Source: Botryllus schlosseri (lineage: Eukaryota). From it: DNA of 64,000 nt. Shown here in pieces: positions 1,892 to 62,845 of this stretch; the stretch's first letter is position 1; each line of letters opens with the position of its first letter. The position numbers were made by a program, and so were the translations under genes. Under the pieces are notes generated by a model that saw only the letters and a program-made list of their open reading frames with translations, ran no database searches and had not been told where the DNA came from. The DNA lies in contig CM119372.1 in the NCBI GenBank assembly GCA_051294905.1, positions 10,046,001 to 10,110,000 on the forward strand, read 5' to 3'.

Positions 1892-2845
1892 TGTATTGGC
1901 TCAACCAACTCAGAAACATCCTCTAAAGACGACTAACATTGTTTCTTTCGCATTGACTCCGTAATATTCTGAACTTATGATATTCTTTGATTCATTGAAT
2001 TTACAAATAAACTTGCAAAGAAGATCGATTTATTAATTTTTGTGCATTCGATACCCAGAGCATAAGAAATAGTTGAAGAAAAATGGATGTTAACCTTATC
2101 AAGTTCAATAACTGCCGAGACGGTTATGCCAATGTATTTTCCACTACCTCCATAGCCACTTGTCTAGACATATTCATAGCATCCACGGAAGAGCGCTTGT
2201 CTTGCTGTACACAAATGAAATATCATTTTCAAAGCAGACATCAAAATCGGGAAAGAAGTTCAGGAGAGTTAGTCAGTGGTCAGATCATCTGCTGACATTT
2301 TCTGTTGGCATGAAACCACGCTGCCTTCCACCGCATGACCAAATTTTATGTGGTGATAATAATTGGCTCCAGGCTGAATTCTTAACGAGGGCCTCATCAA
2401 TTTCTTAGTTGCCTATGTTCGGCTCTCTTGGGATAATCCATCAGATCATTAATCCGTATGCATGTGGTATAGCCGTATGTCTTGAAACTCAAGATATTTG
2501 CACTGTGCCATAGAGTGAAGTAATCCAATCCAGGCAATCAATCAAGTAATCCAGGCCCCGGGACAGTTTGTTTCACCCTCAATTGGAGCTGATGATATTT
2601 TCCTTCGGGTAGTGGCATTTGGCAGCATGACAGAATGATCAACAACTTGTAATATAGGTGTAGAGGTCTAAATAAACTCAGTCAATGTCCTGCAAGGTCG
2701 AATTTTGTGTCATAAAATCATAGTTGACTACCAAATAACGGCTACAATGTCGATCATTTTGACGCAAGGAGTTTACATAGTTCATGAATCAAAGACAACC
2801 AACATATTTGAATCCTTGCGCATCTCCATGACCCTTGCGAACGTG

Positions 2846-3429
2846 CAGAGTTGTAACCAAGTCACAAGGCTCCGAGTCACAAGTCAATCTCACTTTTATA
2901 TTTTTGACTCGAGTCAAGTCGAGTCATTTTCAATTCCCACCGAGTCAAGTCCGAGTCCAAGTCAGCGAACAGAGGATCGAGTCCGAGTCATGGTATTATG
3001 ACTCGAGTCCGAGTCCAAGTCATTGTGTTGACTCCTCAGTTTCCAGTTAAAGTCTTCCTAAACCCACTTTTTTAACTCTTTTTGGTGATATTGAATGGTT
3101 CGCATTTATAATATATCAATTTTCCCCACTTTTAGCAGTTTCTGGTCGCATTTTCAAGCATCAGTACCAACAAACCAAATCCCAATAATGTGTTGGCTTC
3201 GAAATTACAATGAAATGTCGGTCTTGGCCGTCTGTATCTCGAGTCAATGACTTGCTTCGAGTCATGCGCAATGACTCGAGTCCAAGTCGAGTCAATACAC
3301 AGATTGACTCGAGTCGAGTCGAGTCATTTCCGTATTTTGAGAAAATGACTCGAGTCGAGTCGAGTCATCTGAAAATCGTGACTCGAGTCTGACTCGAGTC
3401 GAGTCATGACTCGAGTCATTACAACCCTG
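2846..3429 (+). mobile_element. GACTCGAGTC-rich hAT-type MITE
   Basis: Ends CAGAGTTGTAACC...ATTACAACCCTG; arrays of GACTCGAGTC; collinear with the copy at 45794-46388. Confidence 0.85.
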
Positions 3430-4214
3430 GTTTACAGCCCGAAAACGATAATATACTGTATCCGAAATACGGCTACGTTAACGACGGATTTCTGCGTAAT
3501 TCTGACGATATCATTCTATGTGCTTTGTACAGGATTGACATCTACCATAGGTAAATCTCTGATGACTTCTACAACAAATTTCCGAAACGTTTACAACCAG
3601 AAATCAACAGTACACTATGCGATATTTAGCACTGAAGCAGGTGCGCGAGAAAGTAGCTTGCTAACCAATTTGTTGTTGCTATGCGTATCTAGTCACGTGA
3701 TCGAAGTCCTGCAAAAGGCCTATTGGTGCTGTTGAACATGTAACTGAATAATCATAAATTCAACCGTGCTCCTTGACAACCGTAGCGTCGTATATAACAA
3801 CAATTCAAGTCTAGTTCAGATTGTGTAGTAATATATGCGTTTATGTGCGTACATAGTATGCTATGTAAGATGTCATTGTGACGTAAGACGTAATATAAGG
3901 GTGTTTTGTATGCTCGATAATTATGGCTCACGTAATTGAAAATGTAAAATGTTATTTACCTAATTTTCTATGGGTTAGGATTAAGGATAGGGTGCAGTAT
4001 GTCGTTGAAAAAGTATTATAATATATGCACGTGTTGGATTTGCGTAGGCCTATATAGTATATAATTAAAGAAATTATTTTTATCGAGGGACGTAGGAATT
4101 AGGATGAGGAGTAAAAACAAAACCGTGCTTTGTCAGATAAGACGTTATATAATATCCAGTGGTCTGGTTAGTTAGCCAGACGAAGTAACGATGCAGCATC
4201 GTGATCTGAAATCG

Positions 4215-4780
4215 TATTGTAGATTGCCAACCCACGGATAGATGCGCAAGATGTGAGTCACGGATGAATGCACCGACAAACGTACTGCAGAGCCGGCTAA
4301 AAGCAGCAAACTTTGTGGTCCTAGAGCTGGCGATCCATGCGTCCAAATTTGATGCATCTGGTCTTTATCGTAAGCTATTGATGTACTAATTCCGAAAATA
4401 CAAAATAAAATCTCGTCAGGGCAATGTATCTGCTCCAAAATAGCCGTTTAAGGCCGACTGTTCTGAAAAGTGAGAGCGCTGCAGCAGCATGACCACAACA
4501 ATTACCAATTACGCCCAGCGATTGTTCAGAACAATGCCGATTCCCAGACTTTCACGACTATTTTGGGATGGTACCATTGCCTGGAAATATAATTTTATTG
4601 CGGAATCAGTGCGACACTAGCTTTCGATTAGGACCATACATATCAAATTTCGACGCTTGGATCGCCAGCTATGGCACTATCAATTCTGCTGCTTTTAGCC
4701 GGCTCAGCAGTTCGCTTCTCGGCGTATTCAATCGTGAGTCACGTGTTGCGAATCCATCCGTTGGTTAGTAATCTAAGAAT
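4215..4780. repeat. Degenerate inverted repeat (old foldback MITE), arms ~4215-4400 and ~4597-4780
   Basis: Mirrored ORF text DAWIAS...AAFSRL on - (4080-4346) and + (4568-4768); arms are clearly diverged. Confidence 0.6.
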
Positions 4781-5527
4781 TGTATACAATGGCAGCCGAG
4801 GCCAGCATAGCGGTAAAAATAAAAAAACTTTGCCCGCAAGGGCGCAGTCAAGGGCTTCCGCGAATGGATCCACCAAATTCCTTGTCGACATTTAAAGAGA
4901 ATGCATTATAAGTCAAATATTTTATGTTGTGCTTGTCAGGTCTCAATAGCAATTTAATGTAATTGAAATTGTAATTGAGCAAAATTTTTGTCAAATTACA
5001 ATTACAATTACAATTACACAAAATAAAAATGCTTCAATTACAATTAAATTTTAATTACATTGAAAAATGTAATTAATTACATTCAATTACAATTACAAAT
5101 TACAATTGATCCAACTCTGGCAGACAATGGCCCGTATACAACGGTAGCCGTATAAAATAGGCCACAAGCTGTAAAATGTCGAATGATAAGTTCACCGACA
5201 TTGCAAAATCTACGATACAAACGAAATGAAGGTTACAAAACAATTTTGACTTTGTAAACAAAACAGAAAAAGCTCTAGTGGTAAGTGATAGCACGGCAAA
5301 TTGATAGACTGCGATACTTTCTGTTCCGTCAGTCTCATTTTAGTAATCTATTTTGAATATTACATGTAGGCCTACGGGAAACGTTGCTTCTTACCAGGAG
5401 TATATTGTTTTCGGAGATTTTAGACTTATTTGAAAGGGATCTATTCACGATGCACTTGCGTTAAAGATGTGTGTGACTAGTGACTATGCTACACACTTTG
5501 ACAACACATTGTTTTGCATTCTCACAG

Positions 5528-8500
5528 ATTATCGTTCTCCTGATATGGATCGTGAGTTTTGGATGTGGCTTTGTGCCTTATTGGATTTGGTTTGAAGCGC
5601 GGATGAGGGATCGCAAAAGCGTCTCACAAGACGCACGATGGCCGACATGTACTGTAAACATGGAATGGTAATTCCGTCAGTGTCATAAATGAAGTTTATA
5701 ATAGATTATATCAGGGGTTTCAATCACGTGGCCTGCGAGTCAAATGTAACCCACCAGGCCGTCAATTTTAGTGGCTCGCTAGAGCCGAGATCGTTGATTA
5801 GCAAGCTTCTTTGCCCGCGTACCATTTTAAGCTTTTGTACAGTTTTCGCGAGTCACCAGTGGCCAGCTGGGCACTTTTCAATAGATCGAAAGATCTCTCA
5901 CTCACATTAACACATCCGGGGTGTTATACCCAAAATCAGTGGTTCAAACTCACGGGATCACCAGTTCAGGACTATAATATTGATTACCATAATTGTATTA
6001 TGAACATTTCGGAGAGCTTTCCATGATTTGCCAAGAACAAGCGAGCTGAATCTTGCGAATTCCCGACTCATGGAATATTTTATTCTCACTCACAATAATA
6101 CAACGGGGTCGATGTCATTACCGATACCGATATCACTGGTTTCAATCTCTACGATACCCGACCACAAGCTGTGTCACTGTAATCCTCTTGGTCGCTTTTT
6201 TGTAACAATTTCCGAAAATGAAAGATGAAGCAAGAACAACACACCATGGATGTAACAATGAAATCATCAATCAAAGGCCAACTCACTTTGTATGATCGAA
6301 TTGAAAAATAATTAAAGTTATCCAGGTATAGGCATAACTAGGAGTAAAATTCGTTTTACATGAGGGTGGTTCAATGATGACGTGACATTGAGGATGAGCC
6401 ATTGTGACGCAGTGAACACTAATGAAAGTCACAATGCTCAAGTCAGTCGAGTGCCTCGACTGTAGTCGACCTTTGGCAACGCTGGTCGTTGCAGCAAATG
6501 GAATTTAGATTTTGTAAAAAGAAAATCGTTGTAGTTTCAATCAGGGTTGTAACCAAGTCACATGGTTCCGAGTCACGAGTCAATCTGACTTTTGCGGTTT
6601 TGACTCGAGTCGAGTCGAGTCATTTTCAATTCATCACTGACTCGAGTCCGAGTCCAAGTCACCGTTTTAAGGGTCAAGTCCGAGTCATAGTGTTATGACT
6701 CGAGTCAAGTCCAAGTCACAGTATTAAAGTCATGTTCAACTTATGTTTTCAATCCTGCTTGGGTGATATCGAATTCCTTGCTTGCCAAACATGCTTATTT
6801 TGTCCCTATCATAGTCTTGGCACATGTTTATTTAGGCAGATAACGGACAATTCCTGGCCTCATTTACCGATGCTACAGATAGACGAGACAGGCCGCCAAT
6901 ACGATAACTTTACTAATCTTAGAACTTTAAATCAAATATCTGTCAGTCTGATATATCACAAATGCAAGCACTCAGTTTTTATTACTAGCACATCGACGAT
7001 CGCTCACAAATAGCTTATAGAGAATTAACGAATTCACGTCTACATACTATCTGATAAAGAACCTACGAATTCACGTCTAGATACAAGCTGGTAGAGAATC
7101 AACAAATAAACGTTTATGTAGAGGTACGGTGTTGCTTTCACATTAAATCAGGTGGTTGACCAGAAAACTGTCAACTTTCCTGCTCAGCTCCCGGAGTAGT
7201 CGCCGGAGCGTTACTTTAGTGTTGATTTACTGTTATCTTAGTCGAATTTTCCCTGCATTTACCAAAAATTCTCAAAAATGAGGGCAGAATCTTAAAAAGG
7301 AGGCTACTTCTTAAAATTGTTAGATTACCTGAAAGAACTTAAATTTGTTTCAATTCCAACCAGCAGAAAGCAATGCTAAGAGAAAATATTTTGAATTAAT
7401 TACAAAGAGACTTTCGAATTTTACCGGCTACCTCATGATATTGTTAGATTGTGTAAAAGTATGATTCATGGCAAATGTGGCTCAATTCCAACTAGAAGAA
7501 GCGAAGTTATTAGAGTGGAATATTTTGAATATGAAAAAATAGTCGACTTACTACTAGTATGTGATTATATTATATGAAATCATTTCTCACTAAAAATACT
7601 CCAATATTTTCTCCTCTCATATCATTGATTCCACTATTCAAAATTAAGCCAGATTCAGTGTTCTTTTTATGCAACGTAACAATTTTATCAAGTAGCCACC
7701 ATGTAGCATAAAAAAGAAGTTATTTTTGATCGGCCCTATTGTACAAACATCACACAACATTAGCCATTCATTATTACTCACGTGCACAATGCACATATCT
7801 AACAAAACGTCAAATGGACGGAGGGTATTGTGTGTTTATACAGACAGCAGATCAAATCAATGAGTAATCTTGAAAAATACTAAAATGGAAAGGAGATTCT
7901 CATATATGTTGAGGCGGCATGGCCTTAGAATAATCCACATCCACTGGATACACGTTCCACTGGTGCATTAGATGCAGGAATTGAAAAGCAATTTTGAACC
8001 ACACTGAAGGGCATTAGATACTCATCCATTCTAGTCGCCCAAAAATACAAAGAATCATCGCCTTCAAATCTACACATGACCTTATCAGTCTCTTCCAAGT
8101 AGGCTACTTGACCATCTGAGTCATTTCATTGGCTCTAATTGGACTTTGCTTCGATTGTTTGCTTGTATAATTGAAAAGTCTTGAGTACTATTACCTCTTC
8201 ACCACGGGATTATTTTGTAGAATGCATTGCTCTTTGCTACTATGTACCATTGTCTTTTGTTTTTACGGCGGCATATCTAATATCAGACGACTGCAACGAA
8301 AGCAGTGGTGACAAATAGCGATGTCGACAGAATTCGTCACACGCGTTGATCTAACCATTGTAATTCCCAAATTTCTTCACCTTCAAGTCATATAAAATAA
8401 GCCGAGTCAATGACTTGAGTCGAGTCATGCGTAATGACTCGAGTACAAGTCGAGTCAATCCAAATATTGACTCGAGTCAAGTCGAGTCACAAAAAAATCG

Positions 8501-46388: not shown

Positions 46389-47717
46389 CCTCGTGCTAAT
46401 GCATGACATGACATTCTTCGTGCGGTCGTAGCTCGTAAGACGTAACTGCATGCGCTTACGCACTCTACCGACAGCATCTCTTAATATGAGCTGTTCACTA
46501 TCGGCGCTGTTCCATAATCAAAATATGCGCAAGGGAGTTATTTCTGCTGTTCAGTGTGCAGTGCTCCAGTGCATAGTGTGTAGTGCATAAAAATAATGAC
46601 ATCATGAACACTGTGGAAATATTTGATTTTTGTGTCATAGTAATAGAAGTGTAATATTTCCGACCGATGTTAAAGGTATCTCTCGCAATAGTATGTAGGT
46701 GCAGAAACTACAAAATTATCGCCACATAAATGCATTCACAGTGTGCCCACCGCCGGCTACGATTCGTCAGATTATATTTTCATCTGCTCAAGACACACAC
46801 ATAATGTACAATGCGATACCCGAATACACAATGCGATGCAATGACCATATAGGGGATTTCGAACGATCAACCAGTCTCTGAAACTGGCATCAACCTCGAC
46901 CTAGCGCCCCATGTTGAATCAATCAATCAGTTTTTTTTTGTTTTCATCATTTCAAAACACCACAAACCTGCGATACAATGAAAAGATAGTCTTTGGAGCC
47001 AGACACCCACCTTGGCCTAGGCCAGTGGTTCTTAACCTTGCCTCCAGTTGGCTTGTTTGGAATATATTCATGTCAAAATTGCTTAGTCACACAAAGCACT
47101 AAAACAAAATCCAATACCATTAATCATCCCGTGTTGCCAACCGCGGGTGTGAATTCGGGATGGTTCGAACCAAAGTCACTCAAATTCACAAACGAACCTT
47201 GGTAGGCTCTGCACTGTGGACCTTTTTCATATATTAGGCTACAATTTTCACGTTATTATAACATCTTTGGTTGAAATTTATCGCATTTCAACTGCAGGCC
47301 ACACTATGCATGGCGCTGGCAGCAGACAAATCAACACTAAACGAGCATGCACCTTGAAAAACTCAAAAATTTTACCTGCTTTGTTACAAATGTTTACTCG
47401 AAATATCCAGCTTTCTGTTTTTGAATATTTAGTGACTCTCTGCTGTGAGCTTGACCCTCAATCGCACAACACCAAGAGCGAAATACGCTACATGTGCGTA
47501 GTCAGCGAATGATGCCTATTCAACCCATCAATGAAATTGATATCGTTGTCTGATGTAAACAATCGTACGGGGTCCATCTCGATTTCATATGTTTATTGTA
47601 TCACAAAAACCAAATCCGTGCGATTGGGGTGTTGGCTATACTGCTGTATAAGTGCATGACGCCGAATACATTGTTCGGTCTGGCCTAGACCGTTAAGGCG
47701 TAAGTAGTTATATAGAT

Positions 47718-47935
47718 CGGTCGCACGCGGCTATGGGGTTCTTATGGCGGGGGTGGCATATCGCCTGGAAAACCCGGGGTGGCATATCGCGCTTTTAGAC
47801 CCCCCTCTCGGTCGCACATCGCCATTGGTTCTTATGGGCGGGGTCGCATGTCGCACTTTTAGATATAGGCATCTCTCGCACATCGCATGGAAAACTCGTG
47901 GTGGCATGTCGCACTTTCAGGTATCTCTCGCGTGG
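47718..47935. repeat. GC-rich subterminal repeats (GCAYRTCGC, GGTCGCAC, GGTTCTTATGG)
   Basis: Repeated gtggcatatcgc / gtcgcatgtcgc / tcgcacatcgc motifs; mirrored at ~61308-61525. Confidence 0.75.
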
Positions 47936-48368
47936 TGTTGAATATGTACGAGTCACCAACAATAACCGCGCGGACGGAAACGTGACTTGTTGTGAGGATT
48001 AAGCAGTGCGACCTATATTTCGAATGACCTGCGCGCTGAATTGTTTCCGTGCAGTCGCTACTATCGATTATTACACTAGACCGGTCAGTGTGAAATAGTT
48101 TGATCGTAAATTATGATATATGATGTCGTAGTTTAGTCGTGTCAAATGACCGCTTTCCTCGCTATTGATTGCCACCTGAATAATACTTTCGGCTTATTCG
48201 CTGTTTCGCGCCTACAGAATAATCTGCTGTTCACAGTCACAACTTCATCGCGATAGCGCAATTTTCACACCTCGATCAGTAGAACAACACCGCACTAACC
48301 CAGTTGTCGAATCACATAGGTCATACATATTACGTGAAATATTGTATTGTGGTATACAAATATGCAAA

Positions 48369-48980
48369 CTATTCTTTCAATTCAACAAGTCTAGTTAACG
48401 AATCGATTTTCAAGCTGCCGACACAGTTTTTAACACGAGTGAGTTGATATTTCTTCCCGGGTACGAGCGAGGCTTTGTTCCATTGATCCAAAACCACCTC
48501 GCCAGTATCATCCTTCAATGTAAAACTGTATAATTTCAACTCCTTTCCGGCACCAGAATTGACCGTCTTCTCCTCTCGAGAAACACAAGTAGCAGCGATC
48601 GAGACGTATTCATCTTTATTTCCGTATACCGATTCACAGGTCAATAATGGGTATTCTTCGGTCGTATGTCTCGATTTTCCATGCAGAGTTACTGACGAAG
48701 CCCGACCAAGTAATACAGCGGGTTTTCCAGTAAATTTATCAATTTGAACCCAACCGGATTTGACCATGAGTTTTTTTCGTTTGGCGAATGCTTTCTCAAT
48801 GTTCCCGAACAAATCACGATTGAAACACGTGAAAGATATCTCTTCGTTATTGCCGTCGATGAATATACCTTTGAGATATTGGCTAACGCCACCTCTTTTG
48901 GGTGATGAGACGAATTTGACGCCGACGTGAAAATTTGAAGTTGCTCCGACTTGCATAGTGTTGACGCTGTTCGATGTCAT
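48369..48980 (-). CDS. 203-aa tandem OB-fold, RPA/SSB-like ssDNA-binding protein (left-arm copy)
   Basis: Intronless ATG-to-TAG ORF; OB1 IFIDGNNEEISFTCFN and OB2 VSIAATCVS...YSFTLKDDTGEVVLDQWN resemble RPA-type OB strand motifs (DxxGxIxxTxF/W). Confidence 0.75.
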   Translation of the reverse strand: MTSNSVNTMQVGATSNFHVGVKFVSSPKRGGVSQYLKGIFIDGNNEEISFTCFNRDLFGNIEKAFAKRKKLMVKSGWVQIDKFTGKPAVLLGRASSVTLHGKSRHTTEEYPLLTCESVYGNKDEYVSIAATCVSREEKTVNSGAGKELKLYSFTLKDDTGEVVLDQWNKASLVPGKKYQLTRVKNCVGSLKIDSLTRLVELKE

Positions 48981-50889
48981 ATCGTTTGATAAAGTGTCAA
49001 CTTGAAATGTAACTCACTACACAAATCGAGTTGAATCGTATTTGAATGTATTGATTCGACCCAACTCAAATCCTATTAACGCGATCTGTTGAATCGAACG
49101 TAACCTGAATATTACTGACGCCAACATTCACCCGCATCGGGTCATTCACACATTCCACGCCGCTGTTTTAACACTTATAGAATCAATACCAACTATCTCT
49201 AACCCGATAATATTCAATCATTTTGGTAATTTGCCAACTTTAAATCCATTCGCGGGATGTACTAAAGGTAAATCCAAATAATCCAGAATGAAATATTTGG
49301 ACTTTGACATTGCGTGAATTGAAATAGGTTTGACAAACATGACTACCAACTTTGATCCAGCCACATTTCAAACTCAAAAGAATTATTCACAACATTAACA
49401 ATTGTTAAAACTCTAGTTTCACTTACTTGATTATATCATTACAACTCACAAATTTGAATTAATTCATCCTGGTTGTATTCATATGCTCTATCTTTTTATT
49501 CAATTGTAAAGGTTGTTACTATTCTGAAGACAAAGTATTTACTAATCGGCGCATATACGATTTGACTTGGACATATTATATTTTGAGTATACGAGATTTG
49601 AATGTCTGAACAATAACTGAGAATTATTTTTAACACAAATAAATCCGTATATTACAGCGTAAAAGATATTGGGGTGTCAGCAACTCTGTACGGTCGTAGT
49701 TACAACCACATTAACTAATCTGCCCAGGCAACTCGTCATGATCATTCCTGAAATCAACACAAACACGACCACTGACTTGAGTTAACCGCGAAACACCATC
49801 AAGTTTTAAATCCGCTTGCAGCTGACGGATTATTCGAATGCATCGATGGGGAATATTATTGAACTCGTCGGTATTGTTACTTCAACAAATTACACCGACT
49901 GCGAAAGTTAATATCGAATGGTAAGACTTGATCACATATTTGTTGATCACAGACATGACGAAAAAAAAAAACATTACCGAGATTTTATAAACTAGTCATA
50001 TTACTCTACACATCTATCAATATCAAAATGCGAGTCATCCAATTTTTCTACTAAAGTAACATTGCACTTTCGGATTCGGTATAGTCATACAAATTGTATT
50101 AAATCCAACATCAAAACAAAAGGAATTTTTTAGTTCATTGAAATCAAATCATTCGTCTTCGACTTGTGCTTTTCTAGATTACCCGCGACAATTCGTTTCG
50201 AGTGAGTTGTAACCAAAGTCAAGATATCTTTGTGTCCACAGATATGGAAGATGAATATAGCTAACACAATCACGAATCGACGTTTCAGAGTATTTCACGG
50301 GTGTATTAAACTTGTTAGTGTCACCTATCTAAAAGTACGCACGCGTTCGATTTCCATACCGACTGTTGCGATGTTTAGGATTCACTTACAATAACCACGG
50401 GTGAGGATTTAACATCAATGTCGTTACTGTCGGAATTTGCGACAGAGAATTGAAACATATACACTTTACAGAGTGTGAAAATATCACTTTGAGTATCGAG
50501 TACCGTTCGAAGCTAGCGATCAATTCTTTATCATTTCAGTAACTCCCCATTGTGCGTGCTAAATGTAAAATATCGCGAGGTTATACACTCTAAGACTTTG
50601 ATTATTGTAAAAGTAAATTGTGATATGTTTGTTAGATGCATCCAATTCAACTAGAAGTTTCTAGTATCCAACACTCGTAATATCAAAAAAGTACTTGCTA
50701 CACTGTTATTTGCTAAACGTGTTTTGCATTGTTGTTCATTTCTAGTATTTATTGAAATTGTTTTTGAACCCTCAAATAATAATTCCCGACATGAAACTAA
50801 GCCGCCGAAAGTCGTTACCATCACAAAGAAACAATTTGCACGATGTTTACTAAATGTATCCTATAGTTAGGTGTACTGGAATTATTTGT

Positions 50890-50892
<3 letters not shown>

Positions 50893-50932
<40 letters not shown>
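50893..50932. repeat. (AC)20 microsatellite, mirrored as (GT)20 at 58311-58350
   Basis: Direct count in both arms. Confidence 0.95.
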
Positions 50933-50934
<2 letters not shown>

Positions 50935-52409
50935 CCAGAGAAATTGGAAATTTTTCCGTTGTCATTCGCTAAAGTAAATGTCATCACAATACTCTGTCAC
51001 TAAAAGACGTTACTTGGACGTGCTTGCATTCTAGACATAGTTCTGATTTACCCAACACAAGACCCAAGGACAACCCTAGTTTCAGCCGAACACAGATATC
51101 CAAAATATCACACACTTCGCTATTCCTAAAGCACAAACACACGATACAAAATAATACTTGTTGTGTTGTTGCGGCATCATCTTCACAATATCACCATTTT
51201 GTTTGTGTCAATTAGTTACTTTGTATGTTATCCCACAACTCTTACAAAAGTACGAAGGATATTAACATCGCACTAAGTAATTAACTTTACTCGATATTCT
51301 CACATTACGAAACTAAAGAATGGTTGGTTAGACTCTACAAACTGTTTCGATATCACAAGACCTTTATTGTCTGAATGGGTGTTCATGTATCTTAATAATC
51401 AAATAGTTCAACACAGAACTAGTACTAACAGAAACATCAGAGTTGTTTACACAAAAGTTTGTATGTGTACAGTATGCAAATACCATGTGTAAGTCCAGCA
51501 CAATTGCAGTATCCATTCGAGTTTAGTCAACATAAATTTATTACAACGGAGCCAAGTAAACTTTCGTGAAAGAAAAGCATACTCACTTCCAGAGGGTTAT
51601 GACAACACCATAGCAGTTCCCCAACAACAAAGTACATATGTTTCTAGCCACAGTCCTTACATCTTTCACATAGATCAAACTACTTTGCTAACGAAAAGTG
51701 CTGAGTCATCACATGATCGCTCTCACAACAAAACAGCTAGTAGATATTATCATTCAAAATATTCCTAACCCTTTACACACCAGTGACAAATCATACAACG
51801 AATATGCTTTGCGGGTCGAATTGTTGTTCAGTGTCAAGTCTACCTGTTGAAACGTACATTAAACAGCGCAATCCAATTAAAACCACGAATCTATTTTCAT
51901 TTCGTCACATACAGAAAAATAAATTTTCTTTCTCCAACACATACTTGTAACCAATCGCTTTCATTAAACACACAACACCATAAAAGTATTTACTTTCTAC
52001 AACATAGACATTCCGATGTAGTCAAGAAATATTTTTATTAATCAAAATCATCGATTTCTGTTCACGGCGTTAGTGTGTGCATGTCATACCTGTGGGCCCC
52101 GTATTAAAATGGACACGACACGCTTGACTGTAAGGAGATAGAAGTCTATCACATCGATTTACATGTGGTCTTCGCTACGGTTTCAAAAAACGAATCATCT
52201 CTTTTGCATTGATCTAGACCGAGCAAGTTAGTTAATGGCCATGATTGTGTTTGTCATATGCGAATGATAGGGTTACTGTCAAATCTACATACAACAATCT
52301 TCTGACGATCATAATAGCAATTTCATTTTCCGCCCCTTCATAATTGTACAACTCGGTAACTACGTTTAACAAGACCAATCACACTACCGGCGTTGAACAC
52401 AAGATACCT

Positions 52410-53440
52410 ACCCAAGTAAAAATATCATTCTGGTTTGGACAACTGACGTTTACCTGTGTAAAATTATCATTTTCACTTGGAGGTCCACCGTTACCTAACT
52501 AAAATACCATTGTCCTTTGGAGATTTATCGTTTACCCAGTGTAACAATCCCCTTTTCACTTGGAAATCTATTTTTGGCCTGAATAACAAACCCCTTTTCA
52601 TTTGGAAATATATTTTTTCTCTTGGTAACAAACCTTTTTTACTTGGAAATATATTTTTTCTCTTGGTAATAAACCTTTTTCACTTGGAAATATATTTTTT
52701 CTCTGAGTAACAAACCTTTTTCACTTGGAAATATATTTTTTCTCTTGGTAATAAACCTTTTTCACTTGGAAATATATTTTTTGTCTGAGTAACAAACCTT
52801 TTTCACTTGGGAATATATTTTTTCTCTGGTTAACAAACCTTTTTCACTTGGAAATATATTTTTTCTCTGGGTAACAAACCTTTTTCACTTGGAAATATAT
52901 TTTTTCCCCGGGTAACAAACCTTTTTCCCTGAGCAACAAACCTTTTTCACTTGTAAATATATTTTTTCCTGAGTAACAAACCTTTTTCACTTGGAAATAT
53001 ATTTTTTTCCCTGGGTAACAAACCTTTTTCGCTTGGAAATATATTTTTCCCTGGGTTACAAACCTTTTTCACTTGGAAATATATTTTTTCTCTGGGTAAC
53101 AAACCTTTTTCACTTGGAAATATATTTTTTCCCCGGGTAACAAACCTTTTTCCCTGAGCAACAAACCTTTTTCACTTGTAAATATATTTTTTCCTGGGTA
53201 ACAAACCTTTTTCACTTGGAAATATATTTTTTTCCCTGGGTAACAAACCTTTTTCGCTTGGAAATATATTTTTCCCTGGGTTACAAACCTTTTTCACTTG
53301 GTGATCCGTCGTTTACCTGAGTAAAAATATCATTTTCCTTTGGGGATCTGGCGTTTACCCAGTGTAACAATACATTTTCTCTTGGTCATCTAGCTTTTCC
53401 TAGAGTAACAAAACCATTTTCATTTCGAAATCTGACAACC
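52410..53440. repeat. ~41-bp minisatellite (GTAACAAACCTTTTTCACTTGGAAATATATTTTTTCTCTGG) with degenerate flanking units
   Basis: Unit starts at 52871 and 52912; a 225-bp higher-order block recurs (CCCCGGG at 52906 and 53131). Confidence 0.92.
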
Positions 53441-54168
53441 ACACCGATAATTTGATATTTTTGTATTTTCTTACAGCGAACAGCGACAAAATATACACCA
53501 ACAACGACTCCGATACATTTGTCTAATCAAATATTCACTTGTGTTGGTGCATCCCATCAAAATCGTCGGTTACCCACATGCAATGCGCTCCTGTACACAG
53601 AAATGCATGTTTTGGAAAATTGGACAATAGGCTTCGATAGTTCTGTGATGTCCGGGTTCGTGCTTTGGATTTTCCAGAGTCAAAATGTCTGAATAAAACA
53701 CCTCCTTGACGATGGTTGGTATGTGGATAACGGTGTTCGGAAAACGGTTGGATTTATGTCACCCATCGCGATAACAATTCCAGGTCGAGTTTTCCCCCGC
53801 GTGTTTACTATATTGTGTCTTTATTGGTCATGTATGTCTCGACATTCAGTTTGAAATCGGAAACCCTGATAAAGTATGTAACCGGATCCGGATATCAACT
53901 CTGAATCGATAAACCAATGAACAATATTCAAAGTAAACATGTTACACCCTGTGTTTCCACGAAAAAATACCATCCAGACATACGTCGCGCTTGTTTGCCC
54001 ACATCAGTATACGCGTAAATGGAGGTGTGTGACATTGCATGCAATGTGTTGGTATACAAACATCGATCCACAGACATTATCATAGCCGGTAGTTTTGATA
54101 TAGATCGAATGTCATCACACCCGATAACAATGTCATACCAATAAGCCACATTGCAATGACTCTGAGTC

Positions 54169-55074
54169 CGCGCTATTACATCGATATTTCGACACCGTTC
54201 ACTGATTTACTCGATGGTGTTATCGTGTTGTAACATTACAAGATAGTCATGGCCCTATCTCCGGACAGACCACCCAGACCAATTGGATACATCGATCAAT
54301 GTGTTGTCCACACCGAAGTTTTCTGCTGCAGCGTTTGACCATGGTGAACTATCGAAGTGGTGCTCGAAATGATTGCGATCAGTCTTTCAGTCACGATGCA
54401 TGGATGTCGCTACTCCCACATAACGACTCCAGACAAATATCGTGAACAGTGATTATGCAAATCTCGGACTGATACTGTGATCCAATAAGGTGTGTTTCTG
54501 AGGAATGAAGACTGCAATCGTACACCACAATAGAACACTACCTCGCGATTTCACACGCAATCATAAAACACATCATCGTAAGGATTCAGTTCGTCCGGTG
54601 ACATTTCGAAACGGTCATCGCCACAAGAGATCGGTATCATTTTGAAAAGACATCGTCACAAGGCTATTGACGTCGATTCTGTTGGTCATGTCAATCCGTT
54701 TCACAATCCGCCGTTTTTCAACTTCCCGCACCATAGTGTTACGACACAGACAAGAAGCGTCGGTGGAAATAATAAAACACGGAAAGCACACTTTGGTGTT
54801 ATTTGACATGGATTTTACACCCGACGAACCTTACATTCGAGCGATGCATTGGAATGACGCTTGTATTATTGACGTAGAAGGAACAGAAATGTATCGATTT
54901 ATTGGTTTCGTACATATCCAACAAAAACCAGGGTATGTGATTGTGCGTGGTTCGCATATTCGACTGTGAACGCTCTATTGGTATATGCTGTATAGTTCAC
55001 TTTCACTGTCGTGCGAATAACCAATGTTACGGTTCGGTTCGATGTTTGTGTGTCTATATGTCACGCTTCAGATT
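54169..55074. other. 906-bp unique central spacer of the palindrome with short, possibly decayed ORFs (e.g. 54667-54969, +)
   Basis: Symmetry breaks at 54169/55074; no family recognised. Confidence 0.8.
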
Positions 55075-55802
55075 GACTCAGAGTCATTGCAATGTGGCTT
55101 ATTGGTATGACATTGTTATCGGGTGTGATGACATTCGATCTATATCAAAACTACCGGCTATGATAATGTCTGTGGATCGATGTTTGTATACCAACACATT
55201 GCATGCAATGTCACACACCTCCATTTACGCGTATACTGATGTGGGCAAACAAGCGCGACGTATGTCTGGATGGTATTTTTTCGTGGAAACACAGGGTGTA
55301 ACATGTTTACTTTGAATATTGTTCATTGGTTTATCGATTCAGAGTTGATATCCGGATCCGGTTACATACTTTATCAGGGTTTCCGATTTCAAACTGAATG
55401 TCGAGACATACATGACCAATAAAGACACAATATAGTAAACACGCGGGGGAAAACTCGACCTGGAATTGTTATCGCGATGGGTGACATAAATCCAACCGTT
55501 TTCCGAACACCGTTATCCACATACCAACCATCGTCAAGGAGGTGTTTTATTCAGACATTTTGACTCTGGAAAATCCAAAGCACGAACCCGGACATCACAG
55601 AACTATCGAAGCCTATTGTCCAATTTTCCAAAACATGCATTTCTGTGTACAGGAGCGCATTGCATGTGGGTAACCGACGATTTTGATGGGATGCACCAAC
55701 ACAAGTGAATATTTGATTAGACAAATGTATCGGAGTCGTTGTTGGTGTATATTTTGTCGCTGTTCGCTGTAAGAAAATACAAAAATATCAAATTATCGGT
55801 GT

Positions 55803-56833
55803 GGTTGTCAGATTTCGAAATGAAAATGGTTTTGTTACTCTAGGAAAAGCTAGATGACCAAGAGAAAATGTATTGTTACACTGGGTAAACGCCAGATCCC
55901 CAAAGGAAAATGATATTTTTACTCAGGTAAACGACGGATCACCAAGTGAAAAAGGTTTGTAACCCAGGGAAAAATATATTTCCAAGCGAAAAAGGTTTGT
56001 TACCCAGGGAAAAAAATATATTTCCAAGTGAAAAAGGTTTGTTACCCAGGAAAAAATATATTTACAAGTGAAAAAGGTTTGTTGCTCAGGGAAAAAGGTT
56101 TGTTACCCGGGGAAAAAATATATTTCCAAGTGAAAAAGGTTTGTTACCCAGAGAAAAAATATATTTCCAAGTGAAAAAGGTTTGTAACCCAGGGAAAAAT
56201 ATATTTCCAAGCGAAAAAGGTTTGTTACCCAGGGAAAAAAATATATTTCCAAGTGAAAAAGGTTTGTTACTCAGGAAAAAATATATTTACAAGTGAAAAA
56301 GGTTTGTTGCTCAGGGAAAAAGGTTTGTTACCCGGGGAAAAAATATATTTCCAAGTGAAAAAGGTTTGTTACCCAGAGAAAAAATATATTTCCAAGTGAA
56401 AAAGGTTTGTTAACCAGAGAAAAAATATATTCCCAAGTGAAAAAGGTTTGTTACTCAGACAAAAAATATATTTCCAAGTGAAAAAGGTTTATTACCAAGA
56501 GAAAAAATATATTTCCAAGTGAAAAAGGTTTGTTACTCAGAGAAAAAATATATTTCCAAGTGAAAAAGGTTTATTACCAAGAGAAAAAATATATTTCCAA
56601 GTAAAAAAGGTTTGTTACCAAGAGAAAAAATATATTTCCAAATGAAAAGGGGTTTGTTATTCAGGCCAAAAATAGATTTCCAAGTGAAAAGGGGATTGTT
56701 ACACTGGGTAAACGATAAATCTCCAAAGGACAATGGTATTTTAGTTAGGTAACGGTGGACCTCCAAGTGAAAATGATAATTTTACACAGGTAAACGTCAG
56801 TTGTCCAAACCAGAATGATATTTTTACTTGGGT
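55803..56833. repeat. Mirror copy of the ~41-bp minisatellite
   Basis: Reverse complement of 52410-53440. Confidence 0.92.
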
Positions 56834-58308
56834 AGGTATCTTGTGTTCAACGCCGGTAGTGTGATTGGTCTTGTTAAACGTAGTTACCGAGTTGTACAAT
56901 TATGAAGGGGCGGAAAATGAAATTGCTATTATGATCGTCAGAAGATTGTTGTATGTAGATTTGACAGTAACCCTATCATTCGCATATGACAAACACAATC
57001 ATGGCCATTAACTAACTTGCTCGGTCTAGATCAATGCAAAAGAGATGATTCGTTTTTTGAAACCGTAGCGAAGACCACATGTAAATCGATGTGATAGACT
57101 TCTATCTCCTTACAGTCAAGCGTGTCGTGTCCATTTTAATACGGGGCCCACAGGTATGACATGCACACACTAACGCCGTGAACAGAAATCGATGATTTTG
57201 ATTAATAAAAATATTTCTTGACTACATCGGAATGTCTATGTTGTAGAAAGTAAATACTTTTATGGTGTTGTGTGTTTAATGAAAGCGATTGGTTACAAGT
57301 ATGTGTTGGAGAAAGAAAATTTATTTTTCTGTATGTGACGAAATGAAAATAGATTCGTGGTTTTAATTGGATTGCGCTGTTTAATGTACGTTTCAACAGG
57401 TAGACTTGACACTGAACAACAATTCGACCCGCAAAGCATATTCGTTGTATGATTTGTCACTGGTGTGTAAAGGGTTAGGAATATTTTGAATGATAATATC
57501 TACTAGCTGTTTTGTTGTGAGAGCGATCATGTGATGACTCAGCACTTTTCGTTAGCAAAGTAGTTTGATCTATGTGAAAGATGTAAGGACTGTGGCTAGA
57601 AACATATGTACTTTGTTGTTGGGGAACTGCTATGGTGTTGTCATAACCCTCTGGAAGTGAGTATGCTTTTCTTTCACGAAAGTTTACTTGGCTCCGTTGT
57701 AATAAATTTATGTTGACTAAACTCGAATGGATACTGCAATTGTGCTGGACTTACACATGGTATTTGCATACTGTACACATACAAACTTTTGTGTAAACAA
57801 CTCTGATGTTTCTGTTAGTACTAGTTCTGTGTTGAACTATTTGATTATTAAGATACATGAACACCCATTCAGACAATAAAGGTCTTGTGATATCGAAACA
57901 GTTTGTAGAGTCTAACCAACCATTCTTTAGTTTCGTAATGTGAGAATATCGAGTAAAGTTAATTACTTAGTGCGATGTTAATATCCTTCGTACTTTTGTA
58001 AGAGTTGTGGGATAACATACAAAGTAACTAATTGACACAAACAAAATGGTGATATTGTGAAGATGATGCCGCAACAACACAACAAGTATTATTTTGTATC
58101 GTGTGTTTGTGCTTTAGGAATAGCGAAGTGTGTGATATTTTGGATATCTGTGTTCGGCTGAAACTAGGGTTGTCCTTGGGTCTTGTGTTGGGTAAATCAG
58201 AACTATGTCTAGAATGCAAGCACGTCCAAGTAACGTCTTTTAGTGACAGAGTATTGTGATGACATTTACTTTAGCGAATGACAACGGAAAAATTTCCAAT
58301 TTCTCTGG

Positions 58309-58353
<45 letters not shown>

Positions 58354-60262
58354 ACAAATAATTCCAGTACACCTAACTATAGGATACATTTAGTAAACAT
58401 CGTGCAAATTGTTTCTTTGTGATGGTAACGACTTTCGGCGGCTTAGTTTCATGTCGGGAATTATTATTTGAGGGTTCAAAAACAATTTCAATAAATACTA
58501 GAAATGAACAACAATGCAAAACACGTTTAGCAAATAACAGTGTAGCAAGTACTTTTTTGATATTACGAGTGTTGGATACTAGACACTTCTAGTTGAATTG
58601 GATGCATCTAACAAACATATCACAATTTACTTTTACAATAATCAAAGTCTTAGAGTGTATAACCTCGCGATATTTTACATTTAGCACGCACAATGGGGAG
58701 TTACTGAAATGATAAAGAATTGATCGCTAGCTTCGAACGGTACTCGATACTCAAAGTGATATTTTCACACTCTGTAAAGTGTATATGTTTCAATTCTCTG
58801 TCGCAAATTCCGACAGTAACGACATTGATGTTAAATCCTCACCCGTGGTTATTGTAAGTGAATCCTAAACATCGCAACAGTCGGTATGGAAATCGAACGC
58901 GTGCGTACTTTTAGATAGGTGACACTAACAAGTTTAATACACCCGTGAAATACTCTGAAACGTCGATTCGTGATTGTGTTAGCTATATTCATCTTCCATA
59001 TCTGTGGACACAAAGATATCTTGACTTTGGTTACAACTCACTCGAAACGAATTGTCGCGGGTAATCTAGAAAAGCACAAGTCGAAGACGAATGATTTGAT
59101 TTCAATGAACTAAAAAATTCCTTTTGTTTTGATGTTGGATTTAATACAATTTGTATGACTATACCGAATCCGAAAGTGCAATGTTACTTTAGTAGAAAAA
59201 TTGGATGACTCGCATTTTGATATTGATAGATGTGTAGAGTAATATGACTAGTTTATAAAATCTCGGTAATGTTTTTTTTTTTCGTCATGTCTGTGATCAA
59301 CAAATATGTGATCAAGTCTTACCATTCGATATTAACTTTCGCAGTCGGTGTAATTTGTTGAAGTAACAATACCGACGAGTTCAATAATATTCCCCATCGA
59401 TGCATTCGAATAATCCGTCAGCTGCAAGCGGATTTAAAACTTGATGGTGTTTCGCGGTTAACTCAAGTCAGTGGTCGTGTTTGTGTTGATTTCAGGAATG
59501 ATCATGACGAGTTGCCTGGGCAGATTAGTTAATGTGGTTGTAACTACGACCGTACAGAGTTGCTGACACCCCAATATCTTTTACGCTGTAATATACGGAT
59601 TTATTTGTGTTAAAAATAATTCTCAGTTATTGTTCAGACATTCAAATCTCGTATACTCAAAATATAATATGTCCAAGTCAAATCGTATATGCGCCGATTA
59701 GTAAATACTTTGTCTTCAGAATAGTAACAACCTTTACAATTGAATAAAAAGATAGAGCATATGAATACAACCAGGATGAATTAATTCAAATTTGTGAGTT
59801 GTAATGATATAATCAAGTAAGTGAAACTAGAGTTTTAACAATTGTTAATGTTGTGAATAATTCTTTTGAGTTTGAAATGTGGCTGGATCAAAGTTGGTAG
59901 TCATGTTTGTCAAACCTATTTCAATTCACGCAATGTCAAAGTCCAAATATTTCATTCTGGATTATTTGGATTTACCTTTAGTACATCCCGCGAATGGATT
60001 TAAAGTTGGCAAATTACCAAAATGATTGAATATTATCGGGTTAGAGATAGTTGGTATTGATTCTATAAGTGTTAAAACAGCGGCGTGGAATGTGTGAATG
60101 ACCCGATGCGGGTGAATGTTGGCGTCAGTAATATTCAGGTTACGTTCGATTCAACAGATCGCGTTAATAGGATTTGAGTTGGGTCGAATCAATACATTCA
60201 AATACGATTCAACTCGATTTGTGTAGTGAGTTACATTTCAAGTTGACACTTTATCAAACGAT

Positions 60263-60874
60263 ATGACATCGAACAGCGTCAACACTATGCAAGTCGGAGC
60301 AACTTCAAATTTTCACGTCGGCGTCAAATTCGTCTCATCACCCAAAAGAGGTGGCGTTAGCCAATATCTCAAAGGTATATTCATCGACGGCAATAACGAA
60401 GAGATATCTTTCACGTGTTTCAATCGTGATTTGTTCGGGAACATTGAGAAAGCATTCGCCAAACGAAAAAAACTCATGGTCAAATCCGGTTGGGTTCAAA
60501 TTGATAAATTTACTGGAAAACCCGCTGTATTACTTGGTCGGGCTTCGTCAGTAACTCTGCATGGAAAATCGAGACATACGACCGAAGAATACCCATTATT
60601 GACCTGTGAATCGGTATACGGAAATAAAGATGAATACGTCTCGATCGCTGCTACTTGTGTTTCTCGAGAGGAGAAGACGGTCAATTCTGGTGCCGGAAAG
60701 GAGTTGAAATTATACAGTTTTACATTGAAGGATGATACTGGCGAGGTGGTTTTGGATCAATGGAACAAAGCCTCGCTCGTACCCGGGAAGAAATATCAAC
60801 TCACTCGTGTTAAAAACTGTGTCGGCAGCTTGAAAATCGATTCGTTAACTAGACTTGTTGAATTGAAAGAATAG
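60263..60874 (+). CDS. 203-aa tandem OB-fold, RPA/SSB-like ssDNA-binding protein (right-arm copy)
   Basis: Translation identical to 48369-48980; oriented toward the element terminus. Confidence 0.75.
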   Translation: MTSNSVNTMQVGATSNFHVGVKFVSSPKRGGVSQYLKGIFIDGNNEEISFTCFNRDLFGNIEKAFAKRKKLMVKSGWVQIDKFTGKPAVLLGRASSVTLHGKSRHTTEEYPLLTCESVYGNKDEYVSIAATCVSREEKTVNSGAGKELKLYSFTLKDDTGEVVLDQWNKASLVPGKKYQLTRVKNCVGSLKIDSLTRLVELKE

Positions 60875-61703
60875 TTTGCATATTTGTATACCACAATACA
60901 ATATTTCACGTAATATGTATGACCTATGTGATTCGACAACTGGGTTAGTGCGGTGTTGTTCTACTGATCGAGGTGTGAAAATTGCGCTATCGCGATGAAG
61001 TTGTGACTGTGAACAGCAGATTATTCTGTAGGCGCGAAACAGCGAATAAGCCGAAAGTATTATTCAGGTGGCAATCAATAGCGAGGAAAGCGGTCATTTG
61101 ACACGACTAAACTACGACATCATATATCATAATTTACGATCAAACTATTTCACACTGACCGGTCTAGTGTAATAATCGATAGTAGCGACTGCACGGAAAC
61201 AATTCAGCGCGCAGGTCATTCGAAATATAGGTCGCACTGCTTAATCCTCACAACAAGTCACGTTTCCGTCCGCGCGGTTATTGTTGGTGACTCGTACATA
61301 TTCAACACCACGCGAGAGATACCTGAAAGTGCGACATGCCACCACGAGTTTTCCATGCGATGTGCGAGAGATGCCTATATCTAAAAGTGCGACATGCGAC
61401 CCCGCCCATAAGAACCAATGGCGATGTGCGACCGAGAGGGGGGTCTAAAAGCGCGATATGCCACCCCGGGTTTTCCAGGCGATATGCCACCCCCGCCATA
61501 AGAACCCCATAGCCGCGTGCGACCGATCTATATAACTACTGGCGTAAGCTTATATTCCATTGCAAGTCCTCGTCGAAATTTTTGGCAAAGCGACGAATGA
61601 TAGCCTATTGATTTTATGGGATTAATATATCATTTGATTGCTCCAGTTAATACATTTGTCGACGTTTAGAAAGTCAGTATAGTATGTGCTTCAGCATTGT
61701 GGC

Positions 61704-62845
61704 TAGCGTTGGGACCCCGGGAAATCCCGATCCCGGGATCCCGGGATTTGAAGCAATCCCGATCCCGGGATTAATCGCAATGAAATCCCGGGATTTGTAA
61801 ACAGCATCTACCAAGGCTTACGCAGCGTCATGTCTCTTATTTTGGTAATAAAGCAGTGTTACAAACTCAGCTGATTGTCTAAAACAGTTCACAATTAAAT
61901 GATAATAAAACCAACTAAGGCATAAAATGAACTGCACAATCATTTCCGCCGTAGTCTACGGATCGCAGCAGTGGCTTATTCTGCATACGACGCCAAAGTT
62001 GACTAAAAAATGGTCAACTTAACGGCGGTAACCGGTTTTTGGAGCACCTACTCGGTAAAATTACTTTTTATTTATTCAATTCTTAGGCGATCAAAGTAGT
62101 TAGGTGAATGATTTTCCCGTTTATATGTCCTCTTCTTCGAATCTGTAAATATGGGGCGATAGGGGATGGGGGCGATAATGTGTGTCGAGGTTGATAAGGT
62201 GGCGATAAGACGAAAAGGTTGGGAACCACTGGTATAGCACAAAGGGACTGGTAGCGCATTTAAGGTCCGTACACATGATAGTAATTAAATCAACCCGCAT
62301 GACTCAATCGGGCAAGCCAAAAAAAATCATTCCGTTTATAAATCGCATAATCCTCGGTTCGATGAACTTCCGAGACAGTTAACTGCTGTGGACGGGCTAG
62401 CATTTAAACAAATTGCTCCAAAGTGAGCAAATTCGTCGGGCCTTCAAGGCTGACGCTATAACTTGCCAAGATGTCACAAACGGGTTCGGGACTTCGTGAT
62501 CGAGCACAAAAAAAATCCGCAAGTGTGTGGAAAAAGAGCTTATATGGCTATGTAACGGAATGATGGACGTTTTTCGATCACGTTGGACAAATCAACTCCT
62601 ACACGAAGCAGGCGGTACATGAATTTAAACGCTCATTATCCGGGTAGCTTTCGATCGCTGCGTTTCATTCGTATTCACGGGAGCATGTTTTTTCGTCAAT
62701 ATTACAAGGAATAAATGTTGTCTGTGTAGCTTGTATGTGCATTTCGCTACTTTACCAATCCCGGGAAATCCCGGGATTGAGGAGCGAAAATCCCGGGAAA
62801 TCCCGATCCCGGGATTTGAAATTTGATCCCGAAGTCCCAACCCTA
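61704..62845 (+). mobile_element. hAT deletion derivative with ATCCCGGG subterminal repeats and transposase remnant
   Basis: TIRs TAGCGTTGGGAC...GTCCCAACCCTA; perfect TSD ATTGTGGC; remnants LTAVDGLAFKQIA and RFSITLDKSTPTRSRRYMNLNAHY (first catalytic Asp region) at ~62375-62640. Confidence 0.85.

Follow-up and report, generated by a model that had tools for sequence, protein, structure and literature searches.

What kind of element is a near-perfect palindrome of 13,838 bp, and what moves it? The question is raised by a stretch of 64,000 nucleotides from the chordate Botryllus schlosseri (GenBank assembly GCA_051294905.1, contig CM119372.1, positions 10,046,001 to 10,110,000 of the forward strand; hereafter the window). 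The palindrome lies at 47703-61540 and, by inverted-repeat analysis of the window, its two arms total 12,932 bp, or 93% of its length. An earlier reading made from the sequence alone (the original prediction) took it for a non-autonomous satellite or copy-back genome with Polinton/Maverick-type ends, mobilised by a helper Polinton. Our analysis points the same way: with a probability of about 0.8, the element is a helper-dependent, whole-length palindromic (snap-back-shaped) derivative of a resident Polinton/Maverick family. We infer mobilisation in trans from the cis sequences that the palindrome shares with the helper, an autonomous Polinton in the same genome.

The arms, spacer, terminal trinucleotide repeats and flanking duplication described in the original prediction were all confirmed at their positions (Table 1), by the inverted-repeat analysis and by three empty sites. 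Both flanks of the element are parts of one dispersed host repeat. The empty-site test used the uninterrupted paralogues of this repeat that are present in the match lists of both flanks; there are three. On C3 the left-flank alignment ends at 20641185 and the right one begins at 20641180. On C12 the corresponding positions are 15470955 and 15470950 (extrapolated), and on C10 (minus strand) they are 16569619 and 16569624. The overlap is exactly 6 bp in 3/3 cases, and the three paralogues are empty sites with a single copy of the 6-bp target. The 6-bp overlap of the flank alignments in the empty sites shows that the palindrome was inserted precisely, with duplication of a 6-bp target. A local inverted duplication of host DNA, or chance, was ruled out by the empty sites together with the 6-bp duplication.

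The original prediction expected an autonomous partner with the same ends, and a search of the genome (495 Mb, 219 contigs) turned up a 16.2-kb element that encodes pPolB, an rve-chromo integrase, an A32-like ATPase and a capsid protein. The example used here is the copy on C9 (16,197 bp), which has a compact row of open frames. A second copy of about 15,585 bp (15.6 kb) has an identical frame layout. The integrase (L040:5386-6465) matches rve (E 2.6e-16) and Chromo (E 2.2e-9), both above the Pfam cut-offs. The A32/AAA-type ATPase is matched at E 3.8e-5 and weaker, and only the RNA_helicase model passes its cut-off (22.1 vs 21.5 bits). The polymerase frame has 1300 codons, spans two loci in one reading frame and shows two collinear DNA_pol_B_2 matches (profile positions 58-255, E 0.012, and 335-431, E 3.4e-5), each of which alone is below the Pfam cut-off. 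Residues 480-978 of this frame have 541 homologous proteins with E-values down to 4e-126 and about 40% identity. These homologs are 1,000-1,450 residues long, occur in corals, sea cucumbers and other organisms, and in most cases carry PF03175. One PDB sequence match of the polymerase frame was a chance coiled-coil match only and was discarded. A further helper frame of 432 codons (L040:1594-2892) has 133 relatives, many of them named "F54H12.2-like". Its structure model (mean predicted local distance difference test score, pLDDT, 88.5) matches the major capsid proteins of iridovirus, PBCV-1, Sputnik and mavirus with E-values of 1e-17 to 1e-13. By this model the frame is predicted to encode a double jelly-roll capsid protein, which suggests that animal proteins annotated as "uncharacterized protein F54H12.2-like" may be Polinton capsid genes. 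No penton or protease was identified, as none of the helper frames has a Pfam match to either. Among 113 genome matches listed for the helper integrase protein, 73 cover the full length with at least 95% identity and no stop; other integrase lineages in the same list stand at 66-68% identity (12 matches) and 53-54% identity (8 matches). Judged by these frames, the genome contains an abundant Polinton/Maverick population, which is unusually large for a chordate and apparently young.

The proposed dependence on a helper Polinton is supported by three things that palindrome and helper have in common: the ends, a subterminal motif array and an inverted repeat of about 540 bp. Arm positions 1-541 match L040 501-1117 and the mirror of this segment in L041 at 90.6-91.3% (the 16.2-kb helper), and they match the two ends of the second helper copy at 86% and 85%. 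Arm positions 137-1294 match the helper right end only (L041 6504-5320 at 94.9%, L043 at 92.9%). Judged by these alignments, the helper-derived part of each arm is limited to its outer 1.3 kb. The motif GTSGCAYRTCGC has 10 matches in the window, all of them at the element ends (50-210 bp in), vs 0.03 expected, and it is found at identical offsets in the helper ends (L040, L041) and in most other copies. Three of the other palindromes, C16b, C7b and C4, carry variant subterminal motifs (L050:249-370, L052:467-590 and L054:473-590). In total, three motif variants stand behind the same AGTAGT tip: ...GCAYRTCGC, ...GCATGCTAACG and ...GCACGGTG. A 20-mer of one variant motif occurs 291 times in the genome and forms 42 adjacent inverted pairs among the 100 places listed. 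For the second variant, five of the eight end pairs spaced 15.2-17.0 kb apart enclose an integrase match (intervals of 15.2-16.2 kb, among the places listed). Since the variant motif flanks integrase-enclosing intervals, both end types exist on autonomous-size elements and on palindromes.

The window element thus has the Polinton cis features that we looked for (a 6-bp duplication, (AGT)2 ends, terminal inverted repeats, and ends shared with an autonomous element), and it has no match to pPolB, an rve integrase, a capsid protein or a packaging ATPase. When the 15 open frames of the helper were compared with the element by tblastn, none had a match in it except the OB-fold frame described below, and a search for pPolB remnants with 120 polymerase homologues gave 0 matches. 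The original prediction that no Polinton core gene is present holds for the polymerase, integrase, ATPase and capsid frames, but the element is not gene-less: an intact 203-codon OB-fold gene is found in each arm.

The window copy belongs to a large family. Using the terminal 300 bp as the query we scored 40 candidates, which gave 19 inverted end pairs and two single ends. The spacing of these pairs is mostly 13-14 kb and in some cases 15.6-28 kb. The 906-bp spacer has at least 40 full-length genomic copies with 92-99% identity, and the inner arm sequence also has many copies, mostly arranged as inverted pairs. For a conserved 29-mer from the spacer we count 409 genomic occurrences (221 forward, 188 reverse), against 0 for the reversed control. 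The family has roughly 400 copies, if every 29-mer match is one element. We compared seven complete simple palindromes, three complex copies, two helper copies and 14 end pairs, plus coordinates. Eight copies retrieved by their ends were fully examined: three are simple palindromes (13.6-13.9 kb), three are complex (23.7, 24.4 and 28.4 kb) and two have short repeats (16.2 and 15.6 kb), with inverted repeats of only 617 and 714 bp. Three further simple palindromes were retrieved around spacer matches. The original prediction of sister palindromes at other sites with different 6-bp duplications was borne out: the duplications are exact in 16/16 resolved copies and their sequences differ (one further pair was unresolved). 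AGTAGT...ACTACT is found at both ends of all 17 copies displayed.

Members of the family are mosaics. The spacer, the inner 1.1-1.3 kb (approximately) of the arm and the 41-bp tandem array are common to all of them at 86-94% identity, the ends are shared by type, and the mid-arm is often not alignable. C16b is 97% identical to the window copy over nearly its full length, yet it has the other end type. The largest compound copy (C16:12994015-13022438, 28.4 kb) has a 7.6-kb palindrome within one arm of a larger palindrome, unmirrored in the other arm; another compound copy, C15:14235183-14259649, measures 24.4 kb. At C15:3043945-3057957 there is a 14.0-kb element with the same ends and an inverted repeat of only 637 bp, the outer 1.7 kb of which has no match to the helper end genes.

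The two arms of a copy change together. There are no arm-to-arm differences in the 6466 positions of the window copy, and one each in C1 (in 6341), C7b (in 6405) and C4 (in 6375). C9 shows 11 differences and one gap in 6309, C16b shows 23 differences and three gaps in 5747, and C6 shows none in 4378, after which the repeat number varies. When the window copy was compared with C16b, 124 ungapped columns were found to differ identically in both arms. Columns that differ within a copy number 12 between the C16b arms and one in the window copy, which is an alignment artefact (its arms are 100% identical). In the innermost 1 kb of six copies, the within-copy differences are 0-3 per 1000 vs 0.2-4.5% between copies, and 58/62 variable columns are symmetric in every copy. 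These symmetric between-copy differences mean that a change arising in one arm regularly either spreads to the opposite arm or is lost again. It was concluded that the arms evolve in lock-step (concerted evolution). Two mechanisms of homogenisation fit: hairpin repair during replication, or chromosomal arm-to-arm conversion.

The only gene of the element lies in the outer, helper-derived part of the arm. In the right arm, tblastn finds it at 60248-60871 with 96.7% identity to the helper frame. Five further copies, two of them helper right ends and three of them palindromes, keep the frame open with 97-99% amino acid identity, and C16b has it open too. The pairwise ratio of non-synonymous to synonymous substitution rates (dN/dS) ranges over 0.08-0.57 in all pairs and over 0.10-0.14 between palindromes; the underlying counts are small (4-15 synonymous, 2-11 non-synonymous differences). 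The gene, common to the palindromes and the helper right end, is intact and, by these ratios, under purifying selection. In Pfam the protein reaches only 12-13 bits with the tRNA_anti-codon model, and its language-model neighbours (Atlas) are RPA/OB-fold family clusters (0.93-0.95). A Foldseek search with the structure model placed Teb1 AB, RPA and RPA70 DBD-A/B on top (E 1.5e-8 to 1.6e-7, template modelling (TM) score 0.36-0.54). The wider list also includes HIN-200 domains and baculovirus LEF-3 (E 1.5e-8 to about 1e-5, TM 0.26-0.54). On the strength of the model, the arm gene product can be read as a tandem OB-fold, RPA70 DBD-A/B-like single-strand DNA-binding protein. Such a factor is also encoded by other protein-primed replicons, for example a tectivirus, as described in PMC8276246. 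The protein would then be a candidate single-strand DNA-binding factor of a polintovirus.

The OB-fold region is also where the few element reads of one bulk RNA run concentrate (48413-48982, depth about 5-9, first mates in both directions). Of the 251 RNA reads on the element, 245 are partial matches only. Eleven reads depart from the element at 48806 into a 30-nt stretch that is found neither in the window nor in the 55 retrieved loci, and there is no splice acceptor at the site. The 30-nt stretch probably derives from another element copy.

The reading that we favour, a helper-dependent palindromic derivative of the resident Polintons, can be put as a series of steps, which draw on what has been published on Maverick replication (PMC8097293) and on snap-back defective genomes (PMC13506859). 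The helper integrase would insert the palindrome and create the 6-bp duplication. The helper terminal protein and pPolB would copy it from either (AGT)2 end by jumping back. The displaced single strand could snap into a 6.5-kb hairpin, by which a duplex origin would be restored at once, and the hairpin would expose arm-to-arm mismatches to repair and keep the arms homogenised. Such an intermediate would explain both the replicative success of the palindromes and the near-identity of their arms. The OB-fold protein may act as a single-strand DNA-binding replication accessory, supplied at double dose. Finally, the palindromic product might be packaged, and a packaging limit could lie behind the lengths of 13-14 kb, just under those of the helpers. 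The overall length was predicted to be close to that of autonomous elements and this is what we found (palindromes 13-14 kb, helpers 15-16 kb). The lengths of palindromic-type elements range from 13,225 to 14,500 bp and average 13,905 bp (n = 14, two of them not verified as full palindromes). Among the 42 end pairs of the variant 20-mer (places listed), 27 are 13.0-14.1 kb apart and eight are 15.2-17.0 kb apart. Such a narrow length mode in spite of mosaic arms is a hint of a packaging limit and nothing stronger. In its fullest form the scheme makes the palindromes true satellites of an active Polinton virus: they would replicate through hairpins from the (AGT)2 ends, lose their arm differences in each round, be packaged in helper capsids and exchange end modules repeatedly to track helper variants, with one subfamily carrying a doubled OB-fold gene. 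We regard this full version as tentative and, taken as a whole, rather unlikely.

Several observations weigh against the favoured reading or parts of it. The arm beyond position 1294 (about four fifths of the arm, including the 41-bp array) and the spacer have no DNA match in the two helper copies, nor any protein match to the 15 open frames of the helper. The copy-back genome in the original prediction stands for arm positions 1-1294, but not for the other 5.2 kb of the arm and the spacer. As neither helper copy examined contains the inner arm or the spacer, the palindrome is probably not a simple snap-back of the present helper, and its core may be of other origin. The 41-bp array and the spacer, which the helper does not have, cannot be a shared packaging signal. 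Lengths are not strictly fixed either: five of the 42 end pairs are 8.5-12.6 kb apart and two are more than 22 kb apart, and common descent alone could keep lengths similar. The arm identity can equally be obtained by gene conversion within the chromosome. In the 23.7-kb copy, with about 10 kb of extra sequence, arm segments are 95.3-100% identical and the longest (about 3 kb) only 97.6%, which fits either ageing or failed conversion. The OB-fold gene is present in only four of 13 palindromic copies examined, and it follows that the gene is not needed for spread. Its product is nearly an orphan: two very large protein searches gave one match at 98% and another at 25% (E 2.6e-4); a third match, in a TPR/trypsin protein, is probably spurious. 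The structure model of the OB-fold protein is moderate (mean pLDDT 60.9, with two beta barrels and a C-terminal half mostly at 65-90). No junction was bridged by reads, the DNA runs being Logan contigs of about 80-160 nt over the element stretch. The steps of mobilisation, replication and packaging are all inferred, and none was observed.

The main rival to the replication-and-packaging picture is that palindromes with Polinton ends are moved by the helper integrase alone, are never replicated by pPolB or packaged, and keep their arms identical by intrachromosomal gene conversion. We consider this possible, at somewhat less than even odds. What is shown is, after all, shared ends and 6-bp duplications; the arm identity of 99.5-100% in every simple copy is what efficient in-place conversion would give; and the shorter end pairs (5/42) fit an element of no strictly fixed length. 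Against it, some 400 copies must have been made by copying, which an rve integrase on its own does not do. Furthermore, 27/42 end pairs fall within 13.0-14.1 kb despite the mosaic arms, and the (AGT)2 repeat, which has been linked to jumping-back priming (PMC8097293), is kept in 17/17 copies displayed. Another relationship to the helper can also be imagined, in which the palindromes interfere with it by competing for polymerase, integrase and capsids, or silence Polinton ends by means of hairpin RNA. The arms hold both orientations of the helper inverted repeat and right-end gene, and RNA transcribed through the spacer would therefore be able to pair with itself. Mu killer silences MuDR in this manner, through a long hairpin RNA that feeds small RNAs. 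The RNA reads that fall on the OB-fold gene include first mates of both orientations, which would be in keeping with such transcription, but 245 of the 251 reads match only partly, and their strand and origin among about 400 copies are ambiguous. The 73 open integrase frames with at least 95% identity (among the matches listed) do not suggest an effectively silenced helper, and we think interference or silencing improbable.

Two more distant explanations concern the identity of the element. It might belong to an independent foldback-type transposon family with its own transposase that is Polinton-like at the tips only, much as the original prediction allowed for an undescribed class with giant inverted repeats. 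Most family members are indeed non-coding, the conserved core (spacer, inner arm and 41-bp array) has no helper counterpart, and long arms with tandem repeats inside are also a trait of classical foldback elements. However, the resemblance to the helper extends beyond the tips (541 bp with about 91% identity at each of the two ends, 1294 bp with about 95% identity at one of them); the 12-bp motifs stand at the same offsets as in the helper; 6-bp duplications are found in 16/16 copies; and no other transposase frame was found in the seven complete copies. With its ends shared with a helper that encodes the Polinton genes, a class with its own transposase is not supported, and we hold an independent foldback family to be very unlikely. 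An assembly artefact, whether from collapsed arms or from a long read that was chimeric or folded, is less credible still. A foldback read or over-polishing could produce two perfectly identical 6.5-kb arms, and there is no junction-spanning read among the data examined; but the element has unique flanks on both sides, a duplication and three matching empty sites, and the same architecture recurs at many loci with differing sequences and 1-23 arm mismatches retained, with about 400 spacer copies in the genome.

If the palindromes do replicate and move as satellites, an animal genome holds a record, some 400 copies strong, of polintovirus snap-back replication, and this would be direct evidence for the protein-primed, strand-displacement life cycle long assumed for Polintons. 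Whole-length palindromes with Polinton ends are the product expected if a strand-displacing polymerase switches strands. In that case replication would have left its trace in the lock-step arms, helper specificity in the matching end variants and packaging in the narrow size mode. If only conversion and integrase action are at work, the family is still a clear case of an abundant non-autonomous Polinton family in a chordate. With some 400 copies, each about 13.8 kb long, in a genome of 495 Mb, the share of the family comes to approximately 1%, assuming that all spacer matches are full-length copies. The conserved spacer and ends provide an experimental handle for the family.

Table 1. Coordinates of the palindromic element and its parts in the window (bp, position 1 being the first nucleotide of the window).
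Feature	Position	Strand	Remarks
Left target-site duplication	47697..47702		GGCGTA, 6 bp, directly outside the arm
Left arm	47703..54168	+	6466 bp; 100% complementary to 55075-61540
Terminal (AGT)2 motif	47703..47708	+	AGTAGT; mirror ACTACT at 61535-61540
Helper-type terminal inverted repeat	47703..48243	+	about 541 bp, matching both ends of autonomous Polinton copies
12-bp subterminal motif array	47753..47912	+	five direct copies of GTSGCAYRTCGC; mirror at 61331-61490
Segment matching the helper right end only	48244..48996	+	contains the OB-fold gene
OB-fold gene, left copy	48369..48980	-	203 codons plus stop; transcribed toward the terminus
Inner arm	48997..54168	+	5.2 kb; read as non-coding; no counterpart in the helper copies examined; GC skew strongly negative
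41-bp tandem array	52541..53301	+	18.5 units; mirror at 55942-56702
Spacer (loop)	54169..55074		906 bp, unique; family-defining
Right arm	55075..61540	-	6466 bp; 100% complementary to 47703-54168
OB-fold gene, right copy	60263..60874	+	mirror of 48369-48980
Right target-site duplication	61541..61546		GGCGTA, 6 bp, directly outside the arm

Some properties of the locus are given here for completeness. In the inner arm (49000-54000) the GC skew is -0.11 to -0.24 per kb on the plus strand and is mirrored in the right arm; the G+C content is 0.34-0.38, below that of the surroundings. The GC skew of the arms was considered as a trace of replication and set aside, since antisymmetry follows from the palindromic structure itself. 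The spacer and inner arm contain open frames of 92-151 codons. They were rejected as genes (the amino acid stretch they share shifts frame between copies, and there is no Pfam match) and both regions are read as non-coding. The host repeat stretch interrupted by the element (window 46893-47702 and 61541-61840) has many paralogues with 82-96% identity. A second, very abundant repeat begins about 160 bp to the right of the element. Three DNA runs show very high read depth on the left flank. By tblastn, the rest of the window shows no resemblance to the element or helper proteins, and Rfam and tRNA scans of 47000-62000 gave no matches.

A whole-length palindromic Polinton derivative is not described in the literature searched (supplements and Repbase lay outside its scope). 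The closest relatives are the Polintons/Mavericks themselves. For vertebrate Mavericks, PMC8097293 describes (AGT)2 ends, 6-bp duplications and jumping back on the terminal trinucleotide repeat, and argues for a constrained genome size with reference to adenovirus packaging. In the account of animal Polintons/Mavericks given there, protein-primed copying and virions are supposed, and neither replication intermediates nor particles had been observed. Our element resembles them in the (AGT)2...(ACT)2 ends, the exact 6-bp duplication, the inverted repeats and the near-autonomous size (PMC8097293; PMC4028283). It differs in having no core gene and in its arms: 6,466 bp each, or together 93% of the element, they are outside the range of 46-1,447 bp reported for the inverted repeats of intact vertebrate Mavericks (PMC8097293). 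Butterfly polintons are described with inverted repeats of about 2 kb that contain duplicated hexon and adenain genes (bioRxiv 10.1101/2025.02.07.637071). Defective viral genomes offer a second comparison. A snap-back defective genome, as defined in PMC13506859, is a highly symmetric palindrome built on one genome end and depends on a helper, and incomplete adenovirus particles are reported to carry rearranged left-end DNA (PMC12090768). The palindrome shape and, probably, the helper dependence are shared with snap-back and copy-back genomes. Unlike them, our element is integrated with target-site duplications, forms an inherited family of about 400 copies and has a conserved 906-bp loop; in addition, only arm positions 1-1294 are helper sequence, and 1295-6466 have no match in the two helper copies examined. 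With foldback transposons (Drosophila FB, sea-urchin TU) it has in common very long arms with tandem repeats, a short or non-coding centre and a high copy number, whereas its ends, its autonomous partner and the length of its duplication are of the Polinton type. The target duplication of Drosophila FB is 9 bp. The deletion forms of Kluyveromyces killer plasmids are a case in which a protein-primed replicon gives rise to hairpin or palindromic forms that use the machinery of the parent; these are extrachromosomal laboratory isolates, whereas the family described here is chromosomal and diversified. Primate sex-chromosome palindromes are single-locus structures with host genes and not mobile elements with duplications, but in them too the identity of the arms is far above the divergence between related copies.

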